A stretch of 14,794 bases of DNA, taken from the IMG/VR virus record IMGVR_UViG_3300031521_002449. One strand, given 5' to 3'. Below are positions 1,071-12,970 of this stretch, one piece after another; the stretch's first letter is position 1, and each line of letters begins with the position of its first letter. Below the pieces are notes generated by a model. The model worked only from the letters and a program-made list of their open reading frames with translations. It searched no databases and was not told where the DNA came from. This stretch comes from a virus. A program made the translations under genes and the position numbers.

Positions 1071-1242
1071 TTATATGTTAAATTTTATTTGATTTATTAT
1101 TATTAACAATTCTTCTTTACATTCTTCTATATTATCAGATGTAAATATTATTGAATCTATCCCATCTATTTCTATAGATCCTTCTGTTTTTATTAAGTAT
1201 TGTTTCAAAATCATCGTTTTCAAATGTTTTAATATATTTCAT
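1071..1242 (-). pseudogene. frameshifted or truncated member of the MKYIK...KFNI tandem family
   Basis: Minus strand reads ATG AAA TAT ATT AAA ACA TTT GAA (MKYIKTFEND...), then stops after 35 codons. A +1 frame continues ...EGSIEIDGIDSIIFTSDNIEECKEELLIIINQIKFNI* and ends with the family C-terminus. The frame switch must lie near the A5 run in TAATAAAAACAGAAGG. Confidence 0.35.
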
Positions 1243-1243
1243 A

Positions 1244-1714
1244 TTAAATATTATATTTTTTTGAATCTTTTTTAATTTCTAACTCTTCCATCAATGAGCC
1301 TTTAATATAACTATAAACTCTAACCTTAAAATCAGGCGAAGTTTTAGTATTATTATAATTTGTAAATAACGTGTGCCATATATTTTCATTATCAATTTTT
1401 ACTAAAATATCAGAATCATGATATTTTGGATTTTCAAATTTAACATCTTTACATATACCAATAATGCTATGTTTTTTTTGATCGTGCGGATTTTCATTAG
1501 AAAAATCTAAGCTGTAACACCAAGTACATTGAAATGCTATTTGTTTGTTTATTATAATTTCTTTAGCCAGATCATAAAAATCAACGTTATAGTTTCTACA
1601 ATCTTCTTTTAAATTCTTTAAACTAAATGATTTATATGATTTATCTTTAATTTTAGAGAATTCATCTCTAATTGGTTGTTTTTGATGTATAAATAGTTCG
1701 TATAATTTTATCAT
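1244..1714 (-). CDS. tandem-family protein, 156 aa (N-term MIKLYELF, C-term KKYNI)
   Basis: ORF in the minus-strand array. ATGA overlap with the upstream member. Ends with the KYNI family tail. Confidence 0.55.
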   Translation of the reverse strand: MIKLYELFIHQKQPIRDEFSKIKDKSYKSFSLKNLKEDCRNYNVDFYDLAKEIIINKQIAFQCTWCYSLDFSNENPHDQKKHSIIGICKDVKFENPKYHDSDILVKIDNENIWHTLFTNYNNTKTSPDFKVRVYSYIKGSLMEELEIKKDSKKYNI

Positions 1715-2193
1715 ATATTGTATTTTTCAACTTTCTTTTTAAATTTTACTTCTTTATGTAATGGTTTTGTATCAGCATCGTAATCATAAATTGAAACTAT
1801 TGAATCACTATCTACTAAAAAAGATTTATCTGAAAGTGGAGTAAAATCTATATATTTTTCACCACTTAAAATTTGTATATTTGATAATGTAACATTAATA
1901 TAAAAATCATCTTTATAGTAAAGACAATCAACATCTTTCACCTTACCTTTTATTATTGGGTTATTTATAAGTTTATTTATATTTTTAAATATAATAGTTT
2001 TATTTATTAAAATTTCCTTGAAAAAATTTATAACATTTATATTATAAATACTCTCTAAAGTATAATCTTCATCAAATTCTTCACTATCAAGACTGACACC
2101 TAAATATTTAATAACATCATTAATGAAAAATTGATCTTTACCAAGCATATAATTATTTTCTACACCTTCAAATATTTTAAATTTTGTTATCAT
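1711..2193 (-). CDS. tandem-family protein, 160 aa (N-term MITKFKIFE, C-term EKYNI)
   Basis: ORF in the array with ATGA overlaps on both sides and the family tail. Confidence 0.55.
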   Translation of the reverse strand: MITKFKIFEGVENNYMLGKDQFFINDVIKYLGVSLDSEEFDEDYTLESIYNINVINFFKEILINKTIIFKNINKLINNPIIKGKVKDVDCLYYKDDFYINVTLSNIQILSGEKYIDFTPLSDKSFLVDSDSIVSIYDYDADTKPLHKEVKFKKKVEKYNI

Positions 2194-2417
2194 AGTTTTT
2201 TTATCGTATCTTTAATAGTATCATTTTTAACATATAATAAGTATTCACCTTTATTTGTTGTAAGGTTATAAATAGAATGACCTTCATTAATAGCGGTTAT
2301 AATTTCAAGATATTCATCTATTTCTTCTTTAGATAATTTATAACTTTTTGACAATTCTTTCAACGCCATTTCTTTTGTAATTTCTTCAGTTTTCAGAATT
2401 TCTGTTTTTTTCTTCAT
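2190..2417 (-). CDS. hypothetical protein, 75 aa, embedded in the array (no KYNI tail)
   Basis: ORF with ATGA overlap downstream and a 3-nt spacer upstream. K/E-rich, probably helical. Confidence 0.45.
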   Translation of the reverse strand: MKKKTEILKTEEITKEMALKELSKSYKLSKEEIDEYLEIITAINEGHSIYNLTTNKGEYLLYVKNDTIKDTIKKL

Positions 2418-2420
2418 ATA

Positions 2421-3152
2421 TTATATATTATATTTTATAAATTTCTTTCTAAGATTATATCTTTCAAATTTTTCTGGAAATTTTTCTTGTAATTCCTTAA
2501 TCTTTTTTATATCACCATTACTTGATAAATTAGATATAAAATCATCTCCTCTATCATCTTTAATACCCCAATCTGCATCTAATTCTATTAATTTATCAAC
2601 AATAGAAAAATTATCTTTTCTATGTTTCTCATTTGTAGCTTTCATTAAAGCTGTTCTTCCAAATGAATCTTGAATATCTAAGTTCGCGCCATATTTAACA
2701 AACAAGTTAATTATTTTAATTATTTGTGATGGTCTACCATTTGATGATAATATTGCAATCATCAATGGTGTTCTACTAGATTTATTTTGAACATTCGCAT
2801 TTGCGCCTTTCCTCAACAAACTTTCAATTTTTTTGATATTTAAACCATGAATTACATCAAACAATTTATTACTATCTACAGAATCATATATTGAAGATTC
2901 AGACAATTTTTTCTTAAAATTTTTATGAATTAAATATTTAACATATTTGTATATTTCTTTAGAATTTAGCAAATCAATACCATAATCATTATAAATATAA
3001 TGTATTATAAATTCTAGAACATGATCTTCAGTTAATGATTGATGTACATTAACAATATTTTTTATAGCCTTTCTATATAATATTGGAAATAGACTGGCTA
3101 TAAATTTTAGATTATTTGTTCCTTCTTTATATAATTCAAATTTGATTATCAT
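2421..3152 (-). CDS. ankyrin-repeat protein carrying the family termini (MIIKFELYKE ... KFIKYNI)
   Basis: Central ANK signatures: LLRKGANANVQNKSSRTPLMIA, LFVKYGANLDIQDSFGRTALMKA, LIELDADWGIKDDRGDDFIS (G-TPLH/ALM--A, GA-ID motifs). Embedded in the array with ATGA overlap. Confidence 0.7.
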   Translation of the reverse strand: MIIKFELYKEGTNNLKFIASLFPILYRKAIKNIVNVHQSLTEDHVLEFIIHYIYNDYGIDLLNSKEIYKYVKYLIHKNFKKKLSESSIYDSVDSNKLFDVIHGLNIKKIESLLRKGANANVQNKSSRTPLMIAILSSNGRPSQIIKIINLFVKYGANLDIQDSFGRTALMKATNEKHRKDNFSIVDKLIELDADWGIKDDRGDDFISNLSSNGDIKKIKELQEKFPEKFERYNLRKKFIKYNI

Positions 3153-3559
3153 ATGTTATATTTGTCTATTTCTATCTCAGTATTTATATTTTTTAATCTA
3201 TTTATCAATTCTATCATTTTTTCTTCTGATCCTATATACATATTACTAGTTGGGTATTCTTTTAATAAACCTATTTCATTTGCAATTTTTTTATATTTTT
3301 CTACTTTTATTTTTTCTGATGGTAATATACCGTCAGTAACATAAATAGAATATAACATTGTATTACCTGTATAATCAATATAATTTGATGTATAATATTG
3401 TTCTGTATCTGCCTTAAGATATTTAACTTTTTCTACTCCACAACTAATATTATTGTTTTTATCAGCAAAAACTTTATTTAATGAATATCTTAATTTATTA
3501 ACAAATTTTTTATTTTCTTCACTATATTGTAATGCATCATATGTTTTTATATATTTCAT
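3149..3559 (-). CDS. tandem-family protein, 136 aa (MKYIKTYD ... DKYNI)
   Basis: ORF with ATGA overlaps and both conserved termini. Confidence 0.6.
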   Translation of the reverse strand: MKYIKTYDALQYSEENKKFVNKLRYSLNKVFADKNNNISCGVEKVKYLKADTEQYYTSNYIDYTGNTMLYSIYVTDGILPSEKIKVEKYKKIANEIGLLKEYPTSNMYIGSEEKMIELINRLKNINTEIEIDKYNI

Positions 3560-4029
3560 ATGTTAAATTTGCTCTTAGTTTTATACATTTCTGAATCTAG
3601 ATCTAAATAAACTATAACTTCTTCATCTACATTATAATAGTCTTCTTCATTATCTATTTTTATACTTATATATTCAAATTGGAATATACTATCGTTTTTA
3701 CTATCCTCTGTAAAAGGACCTGATTCAAATGAAACATTAGTACATAATCCATAATGTGATCCAAAATCAGGATCATTAAAAGATATAACTTTATTTTCTA
3801 TTAAGTTTCTAACTAAAGTTATATATTCTGTTTCCATATCTGATACAATTTTATTATCATCAGGTATAGAATACCCACCTCTTGTTAATTTTTTATTTTC
3901 TCTTACTTTATTAGCATGATTTTCCATTTCAAAAATAAGTTGATGTAAATTAATATATAAATTTCCATCTTTTTCAATTATATTTTTCCATCTATAACCG
4001 TAGTCTTCAAATGTTTTTATATATTTCAT
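3556..4029 (-). CDS. tandem-family protein, 157 aa (MKYIKTFE ... SKFNI)
   Basis: ORF with ATGA overlaps and both conserved termini. Confidence 0.6.
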   Translation of the reverse strand: MKYIKTFEDYGYRWKNIIEKDGNLYINLHQLIFEMENHANKVRENKKLTRGGYSIPDDNKIVSDMETEYITLVRNLIENKVISFNDPDFGSHYGLCTNVSFESGPFTEDSKNDSIFQFEYISIKIDNEEDYYNVDEEVIVYLDLDSEMYKTKSKFNI

Positions 4030-4340
4030 ACGTTGTACTTTTTAATATTTTCTATTTGATCATCAAATTCTTCTTCATCCTCAATTAAGTTTCCTAAACC
4101 GTCATAAAGTTCATAACTATAATGATTTGCACCTTCACCAGTTTCATTAATATATTCTTCTATTCCATAATGAATACAACTATCTCTATCATCTGGCACT
4201 TTATAATAATTTTGATAATAGTTAGTATTTTCTATTCTTTTCATTGATACTTCAAAGCTACCATCAAAAGTAACCTTCAATATCTTATCAGCAGGATTAT
4301 ATGATCCTTCTAATGATTCATTGAATCTTTTAATTTTCAT
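4026..4340 (-). CDS. tandem-family protein, head of array 1, 104 aa (MKIKRFNES ... KKYNV)
   Basis: First gene downstream of the divergent intergenic region 4341-4425. Variant leader and tail. Confidence 0.55.
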   Translation of the reverse strand: MKIKRFNESLEGSYNPADKILKVTFDGSFEVSMKRIENTNYYQNYYKVPDDRDSCIHYGIEEYINETGEGANHYSYELYDGLGNLIEDEEEFDDQIENIKKYNV

Positions 4341-7113: not shown

Positions 7114-8082
7114 ATGACACACAACAGAATGTTGGACCGTGCTCCCTCGGTCGTGATTACTAGTAATCGTAATGAATTAAAGGTTTATCAAGGAAACAAT
7201 GTTTACCTAAACAATGGTGATAACTTTGAACTAAGGTTTTTTAACCCATTAAATGAAAAATTAGGAGTTGAAATTAATTTCAACGGAATGAAAAAAGGTA
7301 ACGGCTATTTAGTCTTAAATCCAGGACAAGATATAGTCTTAGACCGTTTTTTAGATGAACAACGAAAAATGTTATTTGAAACTTATACTGTAGATGGTAA
7401 CAACGAAGAAGCAGTTAAAGCAATTGAAAAAAATGGTATAATTACATTTAATTTCTTCAAAGAATATGGTTCTTATATGCCTAAAGATGTAAATATAAAT
7501 TATGCTTTTCCACCTAAGCCTCGTAAATATGATGCTAATAGATATTCTAAAAGTATGAATTATTATAATTCAGGCACATCAGGGAATTCTGGAATATCAG
7601 GTAATTCTGGAACATCTGGCAGTTGTGGAACTGGTGGAAATGGTGGATTTTCAACAAATAATTTTAATTATACTGCACCTGGAGTTTTTTTCTCTGAAAA
7701 GGATTTTTCAACGTCTATATCAAATACTATGTTTTCTGCGGATTTATCAAGAGGTATATCATCAACTATCACAAATACTGTACATATCGATAAAGATTAT
7801 TGGTTTCCGTCATCAAGCAGTAACATTTCAGCAGTATTACCAACAATAGATAATTTAGAAACAGGAAGAATAGAAATGGGAGAAATATCAAAACAACAAT
7901 TAAAAACTATTAATGCTCAATTTTGTTCAACACCTATTCATACTGTAACATATCAACTATTACCTATTTCAGCAATGAATCGTACTATTAGTGAAGTTCG
8001 TCAATATTGTCCAGAATGTGGATATCGTTTAAGAAAAGAAACTTGGCATTTTTGTCCAAAATGTGGTGAAGATTTAAAATAA
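7114..8082 (+). CDS. protein with beta-rich N-domain, Gly/Ser-rich tandem-repeat linker, S/T/N-rich region and C-terminal zinc ribbon (CPECGYRLRKETWHFCPKCG)
   Basis: 322-aa ORF. C-terminal CxxC-x13-CxxC. Internal 18-nt periodic repeat encoding GTSGNS/GISGNS/GTSGSC/GTGGNG. Followed 14 nt later by the vWA gene. Confidence 0.55.
   Translation: MTHNRMLDRAPSVVITSNRNELKVYQGNNVYLNNGDNFELRFFNPLNEKLGVEINFNGMKKGNGYLVLNPGQDIVLDRFLDEQRKMLFETYTVDGNNEEAVKAIEKNGIITFNFFKEYGSYMPKDVNINYAFPPKPRKYDANRYSKSMNYYNSGTSGNSGISGNSGTSGSCGTGGNGGFSTNNFNYTAPGVFFSEKDFSTSISNTMFSADLSRGISSTITNTVHIDKDYWFPSSSSNISAVLPTIDNLETGRIEMGEISKQQLKTINAQFCSTPIHTVTYQLLPISAMNRTISEVRQYCPECGYRLRKETWHFCPKCGEDLK
7572..7646 (+). repeat. 4 copies of an 18-nt tandem repeat (GGNANNTCNGGNAATTCT-like) inside the CDS
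   Basis: ggcacatcagggaattct / ggaatatcaggtaattct / ggaacatctggcagttgt / ggaactggtggaaatggt, read directly from the sequence. Confidence 0.7.
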
Positions 8083-8096
8083 AAATAATAGAAAAT

Positions 8097-8705
8097 ATGA
8101 AAAAGATTGATATAATATGTATATTAGATATGTCTGGTTCTATGAGTTCTATTATAGCCAAGGCAAGAGAAGGATTTAATCAATTCTTAAAAGAACAACA
8201 ACAAAGTGAAAATAATATCAAATTCTCATTATTATTTTTTGATACAGATTTTTATATGCCATATAAAAATATTAATATTAAAAAAGTAAAACCAGTGAAT
8301 GAAGATACTTATTATTCTCGTGGTGGTACGGCATTACTAGACGCTATTGGGTTTTCAATAGAGTCATATTTAGATGATTTAGCATTAATACCGAAAAATA
8401 AAAGGGCAAATAAAACACTATTTGTTATTCTTACTGATGGAGAAGAAAATAGTTCAAAAATTTATCATAGAGACTTAATAAAATTAATGGTAGAACAAAT
8501 GCAGGAAGAATTTAATTTTGGATTTATTTACCTAGGAGCAAATCAGGATTCTTGCTTTCAAGCAGAATCTATGGGAATGAATAGAAGTAATGCTTTTAAC
8601 TATGATGCCACTAACGATGGAATAACAGTCGCATATTCAAAAATATCAGAAGCGGCAACATACTACGCTAGTAATAACGTAAAAGATAATTTATTCCAGC
8701 AATAA
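8097..8705 (+). CDS. von Willebrand factor type A (vWA) domain protein with an intact MIDAS
   Basis: DMSGSM (DxSxS), GGTALLDAI (MIDAS Thr), ILTDGEEN (MIDAS Asp), in the canonical order and spacing. 202 aa. Confidence 0.8.
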   Translation: MKKIDIICILDMSGSMSSIIAKAREGFNQFLKEQQQSENNIKFSLLFFDTDFYMPYKNINIKKVKPVNEDTYYSRGGTALLDAIGFSIESYLDDLALIPKNKRANKTLFVILTDGEENSSKIYHRDLIKLMVEQMQEEFNFGFIYLGANQDSCFQAESMGMNRSNAFNYDATNDGITVAYSKISEAATYYASNNVKDNLFQQ

Positions 8706-8977: not shown

Positions 8978-9130
8978 ATGAAAGAAAAGAAAAAAATTAG
9001 TATTCATTTTACTATAGATAAAGTAATAAACGAATCCTTTGATAGATTAATTAAAAATGAATGTTTAAATAAATCATTATTAATACAGACATTAATTGAG
9101 AAATATATAAAAGAAAAGGAAGTCAATTGA
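8978..9130 (+). CDS. putative ribbon-helix-helix (CopG/Arc-like) DNA-binding protein, 50 aa
   Basis: Hand-translated: MKEKKKISIHFTIDKVINESFDRLIKNECLNKSLLIQTLIEKYIKEKEVN. The pattern of an N-terminal beta-strand (KISIHFTID) followed by two amphipathic helices is characteristic of RHH regulators. Flanked by terminators. Confidence 0.4.
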   Translation: MKEKKKISIHFTIDKVINESFDRLIKNECLNKSLLIQTLIEKYIKEKEVN

Positions 9131-9140
9131 CTTCCTTTTT
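9114..9140. terminator. bidirectional terminator: perfect 18-bp palindrome GGAAGTCAATTGACTTCC with an A-run upstream and a T-run downstream
   Basis: Located between the RHH gene stop (9130, inside the stem) and the end of minus-strand array 2 (9140). Confidence 0.55.
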
Positions 9141-9493
9141 CATAAATTATATTTTTTTGTCATATCAAACAAATATGCATATTTTTTAATTTTATATTCT
9201 GGAACTTTAACATCTATTTGAGATGACCCCATGTGTAATTTTTCATTTTTAACTTTTAACTTTAAACTTTTAAGAAAATTGTAAAATCTATCATAAATCT
9301 CTTCTTCTGTAAAATCAAAAAAATAAAATGTAAAATATTCTTTATATAACCCGTTATTATCGTCAAATAGACATTCACTAAATCCTTCTTCTTTAGTAAT
9401 AGGAATTATATCCTCAAAATATAAGCAAACAGAAGTTAGAATATCTTCTCTTTCTTTTGATATGATATAATTCTCAAATATTTTAATTTTCAT
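9140..9493 (-). CDS. tandem-family protein, last of array 2, 117 aa (MKIKIFENY ... KKYNL)
   Basis: ORF with ATGA overlap to the upstream member. Tail is a KYNL variant. Confidence 0.55.
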   Translation of the reverse strand: MKIKIFENYIISKEREDILTSVCLYFEDIIPITKEEGFSECLFDDNNGLYKEYFTFYFFDFTEEEIYDRFYNFLKSLKLKVKNEKLHMGSSQIDVKVPEYKIKKYAYLFDMTKKYNL

Positions 9494-9807
9494 ATATTAT
9501 ATTTGATTGATAATTTTTTTGCTTCGTACTCTTCAATTTCTTTTGGTGTTAATTTTCTCTCAATTATATTTTTATTATCGTATAAAACATTGAGTTTATC
9601 ATCTGCAATTATTTCAAACTTTAGATTAAAGAAATCATCTTCTGTATTATTACCAACTATTTGAGCAAAATTAAATATTTTATATCCATTAGGCAATTGG
9701 GGGGTAGGCATAAACCAACTTTTTATGTTAGAATCTTCAAGTTTAACATAATCTCCTATTTGGAAATTTTCTATCCAACGATCTTCAAATTGTTTTATAT
9801 ATTTCAT
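9490..9807 (-). CDS. tandem-family protein, 105 aa (MKYIKQFE ... IKYNI)
   Basis: ATGA overlaps and both conserved termini. Confidence 0.6.
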   Translation of the reverse strand: MKYIKQFEDRWIENFQIGDYVKLEDSNIKSWFMPTPQLPNGYKIFNFAQIVGNNTEDDFFNLKFEIIADDKLNVLYDNKNIIERKLTPKEIEEYEAKKLSIKYNI

Positions 9808-10148
9808 ATGTTAAATTTTTTTGATTCTGACATTAATTTTGCGACATTTATACAATCTTGTAAATTATCCGATTCATATAATATTTCTTTTTCTTTATAT
9901 GGTCTATCTGTTACAAAATGTTTGAAGGACTGTTCAAGTGTCAATTTTTTATTTAAACCATCATATATTGCATGTCTTTTAGATCTGAAAAATATTCTCT
10001 CTTCAACATTTTTTCTATTCGGTTCTCTATATATATTTAACACTTCAAACACAACGTATATATCAAAAAAATGTGGCTGGTCTTGCCATATAACATATTT
10101 TTTAAGTTTTGGCAATTCTATTGATTCAAATTTTTTAATATACTTCAT
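9804..10148 (-). CDS. tandem-family protein, 114 aa (MKYIKKFE ... KKFNI)
   Basis: ATGA overlaps and both conserved termini. Confidence 0.6.
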   Translation of the reverse strand: MKYIKKFESIELPKLKKYVIWQDQPHFFDIYVVFEVLNIYREPNRKNVEERIFFRSKRHAIYDGLNKKLTLEQSFKHFVTDRPYKEKEILYESDNLQDCINVAKLMSESKKFNI

Positions 10149-10417
10149 ATGTTATATTTGTTTGCAATATATTCTTCTTCTGGTACTAATTTTAATTTTT
10201 TACCAGATACCCAATATTTATTATTTTTATTTTCAATTTGATATGGTTGATAATCATCTTCAGTATTTATAGCAACTATTTGCATAATAATAGTTGCTAA
10301 TGGATTATTCATTTTAACATGATCACCAATTTTATATCTATATGCTAGTAATAATTCAGAGTTTTCTTCTTTATTAATAGCATCAATATATATTTCATAT
10401 ATTTTTATATGTTTCAT
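10145..10417 (-). CDS. tandem-family protein, 90 aa (MKHIKIYE ... NKYNI)
   Basis: ATGA overlaps and both conserved termini. Confidence 0.6.
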   Translation of the reverse strand: MKHIKIYEIYIDAINKEENSELLLAYRYKIGDHVKMNNPLATIIMQIVAINTEDDYQPYQIENKNNKYWVSGKKLKLVPEEEYIANKYNI

Positions 10418-10725
10418 ATGTTAAATTTTAATGCATTATTTTTTATATTTTGCAAATCTATTTCTTCTGGTGTAGCAAATCTAAAATACATTTTATAACT
10501 ACTTATTTCGTTATTACTATCTGTTATATAACCATTTTTTGGACTATTAGGATTAATATCATATCTAATTTTAATCATAGTTTTAGTAGATCCGACCACT
10601 TCCCCTACATTAGTAGTTACAAAATTTTTTGCAGCGGGAAGAACTGTTGGATAACTTGGTAATGCAATTACAAAGTCTTCTGATTCAAAGTCTTGAAATA
10701 TTTCATATGTTTTTATATATTTCAT
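10414..10725 (-). CDS. tandem-family protein, 103 aa (MKYIKTYE ... LKFNI)
   Basis: ATGA overlaps and both conserved termini. Confidence 0.6.
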   Translation of the reverse strand: MKYIKTYEIFQDFESEDFVIALPSYPTVLPAAKNFVTTNVGEVVGSTKTMIKIRYDINPNSPKNGYITDSNNEISSYKMYFRFATPEEIDLQNIKNNALKFNI

Positions 10726-11024
10726 ATGTTAAATTTATTTGTATCATCAAGTATTGATAACATAGAAATACAATCTTTCAATCTATGTGCTTCATATACC
10801 ACATTTATATTATTATAATTAAGATAAAATGTATTATTCATAGTACCATAATTATGTTTATCATTATATTTGAAATAATATTTTACCTCAGCACGAAGTT
10901 TGCCAGTTTCATATAATATGTTTATAATTTTTATAATATAATATTTATATCTATCAATAAAATCATCAACTTCTCCGTTGGTTACAATAAGAAATTTTGA
11001 TTCATATGTTTTTATATATTTCAT
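10722..11024 (-). CDS. tandem-family protein, 100 aa (MKYIKTYE ... NKFNI)
   Basis: ATGA overlaps and both conserved termini. Confidence 0.6.
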   Translation of the reverse strand: MKYIKTYESKFLIVTNGEVDDFIDRYKYYIIKIINILYETGKLRAEVKYYFKYNDKHNYGTMNNTFYLNYNNINVVYEAHRLKDCISMLSILDDTNKFNI

Positions 11025-12331
11025 ATATTAAATTTTGCAGCATTTGCTTTATATATGAATTGCTCATAATTTTCAAAATCATCCTCTGATTTTTCTTCTT
11101 TTAATCTATTTTCAAATTCAGGTGACACAAACCATTGTAATATTTCACCTTTATAAAATCTTGCAAGATTAAATAAATCTAATTTTTTGTTATCATAATC
11201 TATACGAACATCATAATCATAATTAAATTCTGCTTTATCAAAATTTTCCTTAAATGCTTCTAAATTATCTACTTCTATTAATTTTGGAAAAATATCATCT
11301 GGTGATATCATATAGTCATTTATAACATTATTAACTTCTTTTTTTAAATCTTCGAAATCTCCCATAAATTTATATTTATCTTCTTCAAATTCATATGATA
11401 AATCACTGGCTTCATAAATATTTTCTAAAAATTCTTTTATTGTTTTAACATTCATATTATGTTTTTTCATATATTCTATAATTGATTCATAATCAAATAC
11501 TAATTCAATATCAAAATCTCCTGTGTGTTCAAAACTCAACTCAAATGGTAACGATTTTATTAATGCTCTTGCAGCTTTATCAATAGCACGTTCATTTTCC
11601 ATTGCTATTTCCATTTTAAAATCATCCAATTCACTTTTTAATCCTAAATAATTAAATAATTTATGAATTTCATTTTCTTCACCTGGATCTATTTCATAAT
11701 TAAATAATTTAGAAAATTCTTTAATTTTATTTAATGTCTCTTCAGATAAATAAGAATAGATATAATCTAATTCATCATCATCAACATAATAATCTTGGCT
11801 ATTTCCATAAGAGCCAAAACTTAAAAGATGATTTATAATACCCTCTTCTAATTCCATTAAATCTTCTAATTTTCTAGACTTCATAAAAATGATTAGTTTA
11901 TCTTTATCATACTCTGGTTCATATCTATAATAACTACTAGATTTTGTTATGTATTCTTTTTCATCTAAACCTATATAATTAACAATATCTTCTGGTTTGA
12001 AATCTGGGGATTCTAATATTTGAATTAAATTTTGTTTATCATCATCTTCATCATCTGAATAACTTTCTTTAACAGGATTATTTCTCAAATATTCCGCTTG
12101 TTTTAATGTTTTAAAGCTTATTGATTTAAGTTTCTGTATTTTAGAATTTTTATCATTATTTAACTTTGTGCGTTTTGCTGGATCTTTTTCTCTACCTAAT
12201 CTTTTTCTATCACTTTTAATACCTTTTTGTAAATAAACAGCATTCTTTAATAAACCTTTTTTAACTTTGAAAGGTTTTGCTGAATTTATTGTTATTGGTT
12301 TAAAATTTTCGTATGTTTTGATATATTTCAT
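11021..12331 (-). CDS. large acidic tandem-family protein, head of array 2, 436 aa (MKYIKTYE ... AKFNI)
   Basis: Long ORF. It carries the family leader even though no gene lies upstream of it. D/E-rich interior (SYSDDEDDDKQ...). Confidence 0.65.
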   Translation of the reverse strand: MKYIKTYENFKPITINSAKPFKVKKGLLKNAVYLQKGIKSDRKRLGREKDPAKRTKLNNDKNSKIQKLKSISFKTLKQAEYLRNNPVKESYSDDEDDDKQNLIQILESPDFKPEDIVNYIGLDEKEYITKSSSYYRYEPEYDKDKLIIFMKSRKLEDLMELEEGIINHLLSFGSYGNSQDYYVDDDELDYIYSYLSEETLNKIKEFSKLFNYEIDPGEENEIHKLFNYLGLKSELDDFKMEIAMENERAIDKAARALIKSLPFELSFEHTGDFDIELVFDYESIIEYMKKHNMNVKTIKEFLENIYEASDLSYEFEEDKYKFMGDFEDLKKEVNNVINDYMISPDDIFPKLIEVDNLEAFKENFDKAEFNYDYDVRIDYDNKKLDLFNLARFYKGEILQWFVSPEFENRLKEEKSEDDFENYEQFIYKANAAKFNI

Positions 12332-12433
12332 AACAATATATATAAAATTATTAAGGCATTTTTTTGTTAGATAAAATATTTTTATATTTGAACAACTATA
12401 TCTTAGAAAAAGATATAATAAAATAAAAATTAA

Positions 12434-12844
12434 ATGAAAACACGAACAGGTTTTATAAGTAATTCATCTTCAAGTAGTTTTGTATTATTGAGGGATTCAA
12501 TATCTATTGACCAATTAGAAATGATAATAAATATTGATGAATGGATTAAAGAATTAATTAAAGAAGATAAACAGAATGATAATATAGATAACTTAGAAGA
12601 TAAATTTTCTTATTATGATTCTGATCCGTGGAGAATTGTTGTATATGATGATTTTATATTTGGTGAGACATCAATGAATAATTTCAGTATGGAAGATTAT
12701 CTTAATTATATAAAAGTTGATGATAATTATGTAAGTTGGGATGAAGGATATAACGATGAACCATATCAATCGCAACTTGATTTTATTAAAGATGTAAAAC
12801 AAGAATATCGAAAAAAAAAACTTAATAAACTTAATAAGTTATAA
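12434..12844 (+). CDS. hypothetical acidic protein, 136 aa
   Basis: ORF divergent from array 2. Ser-run near the N-terminus, D/E/Y-rich. A terminator lies downstream. Confidence 0.5.
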   Translation: MKTRTGFISNSSSSSFVLLRDSISIDQLEMIINIDEWIKELIKEDKQNDNIDNLEDKFSYYDSDPWRIVVYDDFIFGETSMNNFSMEDYLNYIKVDDNYVSWDEGYNDEPYQSQLDFIKDVKQEYRKKKLNKLNKL

Positions 12845-12855
12845 AAACCTAAAAT

Positions 12856-12884
12856 AAACCACTATATAGTGGTTTATTTATTTT
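12856..12884 (+). terminator. intrinsic terminator: palindrome AAACCACTATATAGTGGTTT followed by ATTTATTTT
   Basis: Perfect 20-bp palindrome 12 nt after the stop of 12434..12844. Confidence 0.5.
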
Positions 12885-12970
12885 AAATTTATAAAACTCT
12901 TCAAAAATTTTTATCTATAGTTTAATACAGAATATAAAATTTACTAAAATATAAATCTAAAAATTAAATT

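Follow-up and report, generated by a model that had tools for sequence, protein, structure and literature searches.

The 14,794-nt viral stretch IMGVR_UViG_3300031521_002449 of IMG/VR (hereafter the window; the analysis covers this whole 14.8-kb contig, which has a GC content of ca. 22-24%) carries on its minus strand a compact set of seven genes, designated array 2, whose products share a short leader at the N-terminus and a short tail at the C-terminus. Both the open reading frame (ORF) list and the sequence confirmed the original prediction of seven minus-strand ORFs of 90 to 436 aa joined by ATGA at 9140-12331, each gene sharing four nucleotides (ATGA) with the next. From its 5' side downwards, the locus is composed as follows.

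12332..12433, minus strand: 5' intergenic region of array 2, ca. 100 nt without ORF, shared divergently with a plus-strand gene starting at 12434
11021..12331, minus strand: A2_1, 436 aa, pI 4.8, MKYIKTYE...AAKFNI
10722..11024, minus strand: A2_2, 100 aa, MKYIKTYE...TNKFNI
10414..10725, minus strand: A2_3, 103 aa, MKYIKTYE...ALKFNI
10145..10417, minus strand: A2_4, 90 aa, MKHIKIYE...ANKYNI
9804..10148, minus strand: A2_5, 114 aa, MKYIKKFE...SKKFNI
9490..9807, minus strand: A2_6, 105 aa, MKYIKQFE...SIKYNI
9140..9493, minus strand: A2_7, 117 aa, MKIKIFEN...TKKYNL
9114..9139, minus strand: intrinsic terminator, AAAAGGAAGTCAATTGACTTCCTTTT then CTTTT, an 11-bp stem and T-run directly after the last stop codon

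Read from 12331 downwards, the heads are MKYIKTYE (three times), MKHIKIYE, MKYIKKFE, MKYIKQFE and MKIKIFEN, and the tails, in the same order, KFNI (three times), KYNI, KFNI, KYNI and KYNL. Six of the proteins begin with M-K-[YH]-I-K-x-[FY]-E and end with K-[FY]-N-I, the seventh being A2_7 with MKIKIFEN and KYNL, a leader that is one residue short of the MKHIKTFE of its orthologues. Because the intrinsic terminator directly follows the last stop codon, array 2 forms a single transcription unit; two terminator-like sites occur in the window versus 0.3 expected from shuffled sequences. The region 12332-12433 is presumed to hold the promoter of the array, and the sequence upstream of A2_1, TTCAAATATAA...TTTTATATATAWTGT-ATG, is common to the window and to a syntenic locus, L094 (see below). 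A sigma-70 promoter scan of the window was uninformative in such AT-rich DNA (39 sites versus 39.2 expected), and Rfam and tRNA scans of the window gave no match. A second minus-strand array, array 1 (1071-4340), carries the same tags as array 2.

The boundaries between these genes are built from one repeated element. A ca. 40-nt direct-repeat family (D1), composed of the tail codons, ATGA and the leader codons, marks eight gene boundaries in the window with 75-100% identity. All eight copies lie on the minus strand: five belong to array 2 (span 9784..11040, 83-100% identity) and three to array 1.

9784-9823, 10125-10164, 10394-10433, 10702-10741 and 11001-11040, minus strand: junction-repeat copies of array 2
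1219-1258, 3536-3575 and 4006-4045, minus strand: further junction-repeat copies, in array 1

A 20-mer taken from this junction, AAYATATGAAATATATAAAA, has nine matches in the window with at most three mismatches, versus 0.29 expected, and none of 200 shuffles reached nine. When IMG/VR was scanned with it, 93 stretches matched, mostly contigs of 168-330 kb and ca. 22% GC. Matches in giant-virus metagenome-assembled genomes (MAGs) and in other contigs of higher GC were discarded as chance matches, since no tagged ORFs occur there. A scan of the species-representative prokaryotic genomes gave single chance matches only, devoid of tagged ORFs and of any clue to a host.

ORFs ending in [KR][FY]N[ILV] were collected from the low-GC loci, giving a set of 150 unique sequences, of which 104 carry the canonical leader M-K-[YH]-[IL]-K-x-[FY]-E; most of the non-canonical heads are variants such as MKI-RFNES or MITNFKLYE. 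In the leader, the information content is more than 3 bits at positions 1-5, 7 and 8, but under 1 bit at position 9 and beyond. The consensus of the tail is [ATS]-[NK]-K-[FY]-N-[IL] with a free carboxyl end; its K and N were set by the selecting expression and are no evidence in themselves, and the independent signal is the enrichment of N/K at position -5 and of A/T/S at position -6. At least 34 tail-bearing ORFs occur on a single related contig of 222 kb.

Both tags are under purifying selection at the protein level, independently of the gene overlaps. The original prediction had held that they are real features of the proteins and not by-products of the overlaps, and this proved correct on several grounds: the tail is followed by an ATGA overlap in 103 of the 150 genes and by TAA and a gap of 1-20 nt in 45, both tags are kept on first, last and lone opposite-strand genes, orthologues of different genomes differ synonymously inside the tags, and relatives of A2_1 that are only 25-30% identical in the body still carry head and tail. 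Synonymous codons of the leader are used at the background rate (AAG 8-11% and GAG 12%, versus 11-13% in interiors).

These data bear directly on the alternative that the junction is mainly a nucleic-acid signal, acting in coupling or reinitiation of translation where no Shine-Dalgarno site is present and/or as a recombination site, with the amino acids as a by-product of gene conversion. The high proportion of ATGA overlaps would fit such a signal, as would the 40-nt direct repeat, the exact 20-mers that recur in the window and in related IMG/VR contigs, and the uniformity of the tail variant within a genome. The tags nevertheless persist where there is no neighbour to be coupled to, the leader varies synonymously like any other coding sequence, and in the huge phage LR756500 (see below) a comparable leader occurs on 30 ORFs of both strands that are clustered in several regions and not arranged in ATGA tandem arrays. 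Codon usage in the tail gives a further argument on either side: of 159 genes, 60% use AAC for the tail Asn (e.g. window 9146-9148, 9496-9498 and 9810-9812), versus 11-13% in interiors, as might be expected of a constrained nucleotide sequence, but the bias is independent of both the last codon (tails ending in Ile or Leu) and the stop codon (TAA as well as ATGA), and is matched by an enrichment of TTC and TAC at the conserved tail Phe and Tyr. It probably reflects selection for accurately read codons at critical residues and not an RNA signal, and a purely nucleic-acid explanation of the junction is in our view improbable.

Two specific candidates were tried for the same stretch of codons and rejected. 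A -1 frameshift at AAATTTA would be in the wrong phase, and this heptamer is absent from tails of the K-Y-N type. A CATATG palindrome as the selected site was dropped because the AAC bias is also present before TTA.

Between their constant ends, the seven proteins differ widely. The original prediction saw no similarity among the interiors, which holds for A2_1 and A2_7, each of a class of its own, but not for the remaining members. A2_2 and A2_5 can be aligned from end to end (27% identity, E 6e-11 in a small database) and share an L-[KQ]-D-C-I motif before the tail, while A2_3, A2_4 and A2_6 are weakly related (IGDxVK...NTEDD...PEEI), the relationship being linked via L098_10309 and L094_8380. 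Array 2 holds at least four sequence classes in its seven genes. In array 1, A1_2 is related to A1_6 and A1_7 over the full length. At larger scale, 149 interiors of tail-bearing ORFs fell into 44 BLAST components, one of which has 51 members, and the members of the window and those of IMG/VR share essentially the tags only, with the exceptions of the ankyrin protein, A1_1 and one weak match of A2_6. Full-length homology is confined to subsets of the tagged members, so the set does not consist of ordinary recent paralogues.

Pfam and PHROG scans of the seven array-2 members gave nothing above threshold, and the tagged set as such, to which no model of either collection corresponds, does not belong to a known family; the leader strings occur in no paper of the searched literature. 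Among 27 longer members from related contigs, Pfam detected leucine-rich repeats (LRR) in five and ankyrin repeats in three. The tagged products are mostly acidic or neutral, with a median pI of 5.9 and 51% below pI 6.

The largest product, A2_1, is composed of the leader, a basic helical-hairpin N-module (residues ca. 13-85), a linker, an alpha/beta domain of ca. 330 aa and the tail, the N-module being its only basic part. An exhaustive HMMER scan of 1.84 billion representatives matched 62 clusters, and 66 homologues were found on contigs of up to 531 kb. The first ca. 100 residues of A2_1 also occur in front of C-terminal domains of other kinds, including an ankyrin domain, and six of the seven retrieved proteins that combine the N-module with another domain end in K/E-Y-N-L. 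Conversely, the C-terminal domain of ca. 330 residues also occurs alone, with 25-35% identity, in proteins of 340-400 aa, most of which have a leader (MKYLKxFE, MI[KT]K[FY]KIFE and others) as well as a tail ([FY]-N-[LI], sometimes G-L-[LFY]) of their own. Since the modules of A2_1 are found separately in other tagged proteins, domains are shuffled inside a constant head-tail bracket. Word-indexed searches with A2_5 alone or with an 11-member alignment found few relatives; it was the HMMER scan and the search with the larger A2_1 that yielded most.

Structure prediction with AlphaFold placed the tags outside the fold in the two members modelled. The A2_1 model (39-sequence alignment) has a pLDDT of 84.4, with residues 1-12 and 434-436 below 50, and the A2_5 model is a beta-meander followed by a C-terminal helix (pLDDT 77.9, pTM 0.71), with residues 1-6 and 111-114 below 50. 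Neither model matched a known fold (PDB, in the case of A2_1). A pairing of the N- with the C-terminus was considered and rejected, both termini being of low confidence and solenoid cargo holding its termini far apart.

The same comparisons speak to the idea that the tagged proteins form one ordinary, fast-evolving paralogous family in which the termini are simply the best-conserved structural elements, for instance pairing strands. The full-length relatedness of A2_2 with A2_5 and of A1_2 with A1_6 and A1_7, together with the 51-member component, is what such a family would produce. Ankyrin and LRR solenoids, a beta-meander and a 330-aa alpha/beta domain, however, cannot share one fold, both models leave the tags outside the fold at low confidence, domains are swapped inside the bracket and conservation stops abruptly at residue 8, and this explanation is accordingly a most improbable one.

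Three syntenic relatives of the locus were compared: L094 (75-kb contig), L098 (59-kb contig, also binned in an NCBI MAG) and L135 (531-kb contig). In all three, an array with a member of the A2_1 family is followed by a VWA gene, a zinc-ribbon gene and NUDIX, and L094 and L135 also have the full upstream part, with SIS, glucosaminidase, the gene similar to major vault protein (MVP) discussed below, two genes and then the array. The content and order of array 2 differ between these genomes as follows.

Window: 1-2-3-4-5-6-7
L094: X-1-5-3-Y-Z
L098: 1-Y-6-7-W
L135: ten tagged genes, among them A2_6-like and A2_7-like copies (two of each)

Orthologous cassettes of different genomes are 46-66% identical. 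The orthologue of A2_3 in L094 is 59% identical and occupies another array position, that of A2_5 in L094 is 58% identical, and that of A2_6 (L098_1749) is also 58% identical, with further A2_6 relatives in array 1 of L098 and in L135; no orthologue of A2_4 was found in L094, L098 or L135. One cassette type resides in array 1 in L098 and in array 2 in L094 and in the window. The content and order of the arrays across the window, L094, L098 and L135 bear out the earlier description of diverse cargo in hyperplastic loci. The tags themselves are present on the orthologous arrays of L094, L098 and L135, where their absence would have spoken against the original prediction. In the L135 array (9429-14619) all ten tails are KYNL, versus K[FY]NI in the window, the tail variant being uniform per genome, and this points to concerted evolution or, alternatively, to co-evolution with a receptor. 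A tail that is strictly C-terminal, variable between lineages and uniform within a genome also suggests that a putative receptor reads the free carboxyl end.

Two observations were made on the genes around these arrays. L094 (10668-11489) and L098 (947-1762) hold an array member of 271-273 aa with the leader MKK[IL]KLFEDF and no tail, which displays a faint methyltransferase match and is 85% identical between the two contigs, far above its neighbours. Next to array 2, the plus strand of the window (7114-8705) encodes a low-complexity protein rich in G, S and N with a C-terminal zinc ribbon, followed by a VWA-domain protein, and this gene pair is kept beside array 2 in L094, L098 and L135.

Array 1 has orthologues in L094 and L098 and consists, in the window, of the following genes.

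4026-4340, minus strand: tagged member, MKIKRFNE...KKYNV
3556-4029, 3149-3559, 1711-2193 and 1244-1714, minus strand: further members (from the ORF list)
2421-3152, minus strand: ankyrin-repeat member (Pfam ankyrin matches)
2190-2417, minus strand: untagged gene of 75 aa (from the ORF list)
1071-1243, minus strand: frameshifted tagged gene, the last of the array, with frames MKYIKTFENDDFETILNKN and ...KTEGSIEIDG...ECKEELLIIINQIKFNI and a switch at the A-run AATAAAAAC

The frameshifted gene could be a pseudogene, a sequencing error or a case of programmed slippage. With 71-80% identity to the orthologues of L094 and L098, the untagged 75-aa gene is better conserved than the tagged cassettes around it (46-66%). 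In L098, the ends of array 1 carry a GIY-YIG/NUMOD3 homing endonuclease and a TnpB (OrfB_IS605) gene (9118-9768 and 12788-14026), and a gene similar to T4 gp30.3 (Pfam Phage_30_3) occurs near these insertions.

The affiliation of the window is indicated by the MVP-like gene (12971..14794, plus strand), which adjoins array 2 and runs off the window. It adjoins the array likewise in L094 (4952-7363), L096 and L135 (5811-8228), and its orthologues carry the Pfam domains Vault_3 and MVP_shoulder. Its sole homologues in deposited phages are those of huge phages: with 54-57% identity, it matches genes of two complete huge phages, LR756500 (462 kb; 57%) and LR756501 (735 kb). The largest genomes of the study that described them belong to the Mahaphage clade, and Bacteroidetes were predicted to be their hosts (PMC7162821). 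On this gene, the window is assigned to a huge tailed phage of ca. 22-24% GC related to huge phages of the Mahaphage type, of which LR756500 is the deposited representative.

An MVP-like gene next to a tagged array invites the proposal that the tags are cargo-loading peptides for a putative vault-like shell of the adjacent MVP homologue. Encapsulins load diverse cargo in this manner via short terminal peptides, and terminal secretion signals likewise occur on effector repertoires with ankyrin or LRR domains. Such systems resemble the present one in having short tags outside the fold, diverse cargo and, for encapsulins, a shell-type neighbour; they differ in that no sequence relation exists, that two tags are found instead of one, and that neither a shell nor a secretion apparatus was implicated by any test made here. 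The adjacency itself is repeated in the window and three syntenic genomes, and ca. 4.5 kb separate the MVP gene of LR756500 from a cluster of six genes with the leader. Yet tagged arrays also occur away from it (array 1 is ca. 8 kb distant, and many IMG/VR loci carry arrays), in other phages the leader stands in capsid modules beside portal, protease and capsid genes with no MVP gene in the fetched stretch, and the tail differs between two lineages whose MVP genes are 57% identical. Loading of a vault-like shell appears very unlikely as the function of the tags, although the constant vicinity of the MVP-like gene leaves it some small probability.

The leader can be traced further than the tail. 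The whole genome of LR756500, which shares the MVP-like gene of the window, contains T4-type genes for terminase (gp17), sheath (gp18) and portal (gp20) and a gp21-like protease gene (phmmer with T4 queries: gp20, 6.5e-33; gp21, 2.3e-8). Thirty of its ORFs, on both strands and in several regions, start with MK[YF][IL]xxYx[ED]F[LI]xE, e.g. MKYIKEYEEFILEA, and 12 of these 30 leaders have [LIV]xE[AGS] at positions 11-14. K[FY]N[IL] tails are absent from the whole LR756500 genome. Eleven of the 30 leader ORFs end instead in NADDFG[FL][FLI](DN) (e.g. 11706-17016, 180972-181730, 197835-199531 and 313382-313912; L102-L111), so that the two-tag architecture recurs with another C-terminal tag. The leader is older than the tail.

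IMG/VR was further scanned with a profile of the gp21-like protease, a family that is widespread in the relatives, and in several other lineages leader-bearing ORFs were found within the head module itself, in the following orders.

L179: portal, MKHIKLFEQFIGEN protein, gp21-like protease, and a group of three genes that have one identical leader of 17 aa, MKHIKLFEQFCSSLNE followed by G
L201: protease, major capsid, MAKLKTYTEFVNEA, MKHIKLFEQYINEA
L141: portal, protease, MKHVRLYEEFITES, MKYIKLFEQFVQDLNES
L137: portal, protease, major capsid, MKHIKTFELFTEEA

A layout similar to that of L179 is found in L150. The bodies of the three leader-bearing L179 proteins show no mutual BLAST similarity. 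Cleavage by gp21 occurs at sites of the [L/I]-x-E form, and such a site ends the leaders of LR756500, L179, L201 and L141. In phage T4, the capsid-targeting sequence (CTS) MKTYQEFIAE is removed by a single cut of the prohead protease and loads foreign proteins too (PMC8442874), and the internal proteins of T-even phages are diverse defence proteins that share only this leader (PMC3012670). The head module of the L179 type has the T4 internal-protein arrangement, and this is the strongest evidence that the MKYIKxFE of the window may be a shortened prohead-targeting leader.

The likeness to the T4 CTS proteins extends to several traits: a leader of ca. 10 residues beginning with MK and including an aromatic residue and Glu, carried by diverse proteins of a hypervariable locus; a relative with T4-type portal and gp21-like protease genes, namely LR756500; and, in the longer leaders of the relatives, a terminal [LI]-x-E[AGS] and the shared Y.EFI.EA, which MKYIKEYEEFILEA has in common with the T4 CTS. 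There are also differences, in that the leader of the window clade has eight residues and no L/I at P3, that dozens of members per genome are organised in ATGA-coupled operons instead of the three or four members of T4, that an additional conserved hexapeptide is present at the C-terminus, and that the products are mostly acidic or neutral. The analogy with T4 internal proteins drawn in the original prediction gains support for the leader, which is present in the head modules of relatives, and fails for the charge of the products and for the tail, which has no T4 counterpart. The accompanying suggestion that Glu8 is a protease cut site is unsupported because P3 is not L/I in the window clade and [LIV]-x-E is not enriched after the leader.

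A T4-CTS-like, prohead-targeting leader on a shuffling library of effectors of a huge phage is the explanation that we favour, and we consider its chances of being right or wrong about equal. A number of observations weigh against it. T4 internal proteins are highly basic (PMC8442874), which the tagged products, with the pI values given above, are not. The neighbours of the arrays are genes of the NUDIX, cold-shock, nucleotidase and VWA kinds and not those of a head module, and the 34 or more tail-bearing ORFs of the 222-kb contig are many for packaged proteins. The window-clade leader stops at E8 with K, T or a variable residue at P3, and [LIV]-x-E was observed 17 times in residues 9-24, versus 23 ± 3.7 in controls. 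No gp21-type protease was found in the fetched window-clade loci, which contain no T4 core genes, and two IMG/VR scans for the prohead-protease module of this clade returned other lineages only; in Tenacibaculum phage PTm1, an isolated relative with the same protease family, no leader-bearing ORFs surround the protease. The similarity between leader and T4 CTS spans only ca. 8-14 residues, too short for a meaningful statistic, and the tail has no known counterpart.

Some of these points would be accommodated if the tags were handles not for a capsid but for a cytoplasmic hub (a host or phage protease of the AAA+ or PDZ type, a chaperone or a compartment). The arrays would then encode early host-takeover adaptors that hold a host target with an ankyrin, LRR or other binder domain and dock to the common hub with their two free terminal peptides. 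Ankyrin and LRR are two classic protein-binding repeat scaffolds, the neighbours of the arrays are of metabolic or early type and not structural, the products lack a basic character, both models leave the tags exposed, and a tail that is strictly at the carboxyl terminus and genome-specific (10/10 KYNL in L135) fits co-evolution with one receptor. The ending [FY]-N-[IL]-COOH would also suit a ligand with a hydrophobic-x-hydrophobic C-terminus, as in a possible PDZ-type recognition. Against such a hub, no candidate receptor was found, and proteins encoded between the portal, protease and major capsid genes of related phages carry this leader, there with a protease-type site at its end; we regard this explanation as unlikely, if worth keeping in mind.

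Under the favoured prohead-targeting explanation, array 2 would be one operon of translationally coupled cassettes, each consisting of an independently folded body of variable origin, presumably a small beta or alpha/beta domain in the window and ankyrin or LRR binders in relatives. The leader would be the local form of a T4-CTS-like leader that brings its protein to the core or scaffold of the prohead in a phage possessing a protease of the gp21 type, and the arrays would then constitute a library of capsid-packaged, injected, host-directed proteins. The tail may be another docking peptide, specific to the lineage, whose putative receptor would require the carboxyl terminus to be free.

Because every gene boundary has the same ca. 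40 nt, the junction may play a dual role. It would couple translation where there is no Shine-Dalgarno site, and it would offer short homology for recombination, by which whole in-frame cassettes could be deleted, duplicated or swapped; recombination at the repeat is what we infer from the arrangement of the cassettes, and the coding junction probably serves their exchange. In T4-type phages, homology of less than 50 bp suffices for recombination (PMC2839356), and promoter-early stem-loop (PeSL) elements flank ORFans in the hyperplastic regions, where they mediate modular shuffling (PMC2839356, PMC4122927). The junctions resemble PeSLs in being short conserved repeats at gene boundaries where relatives differ by gain, loss or reordering of whole ORFs. 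PeSLs, however, are intergenic elements of ca. 100 bp with a promoter and a terminator or attenuator, whereas the junction is ca. 40 nt of coding sequence and the whole of array 2 has one presumed promoter and one terminator. Indeed, the genes overlap by four nucleotides and leave no intergenic space for a PeSL-type promoter and stem-loop, and promoter-like sites occur at the frequency expected by chance.

A more elaborate form of the prohead-targeting explanation would be a two-address system, in which an ancient leader of the T4-CTS type loads the prohead while a lineage-specific tail (K[FY]N[IL] here, NADDFGFFDN in LR756500) docks to a second receptor, which might serve in retention, in the order of ejection or in reaching a host target. 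The junction of tail and leader would at the same time act in recombination and translational coupling, so that dozens of ankyrin, LRR and novel binder cassettes could be exchanged in frame. This would be a phage counterpart of the effector arsenal of secretion systems, possibly linked to the vault-like shell gene, and we put it forward as a possible but rather doubtful scenario. Relative to the T4 principle, what is new is the second, C-terminal tag, the dozens of cassettes including ankyrin and LRR proteins, and the coding junction with its coupling and, probably, its part in cassette exchange.

Most genes of huge phages are without known function, and many of them, forming one large class, would be recognised by a simple rule based on an eight-residue leader and a six-residue tail; in the window alone, 14-15 tagged genes cover ca. 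6.5 of 14.8 kb. If the leader is a capsid-targeting signal, this rule marks one functional set, and megaphages would inject dozens of proteins, ankyrin and LRR binders included. The injected arsenal would then be far larger than the T4 internal proteins and would be a place to seek anti-defence and host-takeover factors. Large capsids could also be loaded with foreign proteins by means of the leader, a practical use to which the T4 CTS is already put, and the coding junction would be a compact example of one sequence used for protein addressing, operon translation and cassette exchange.

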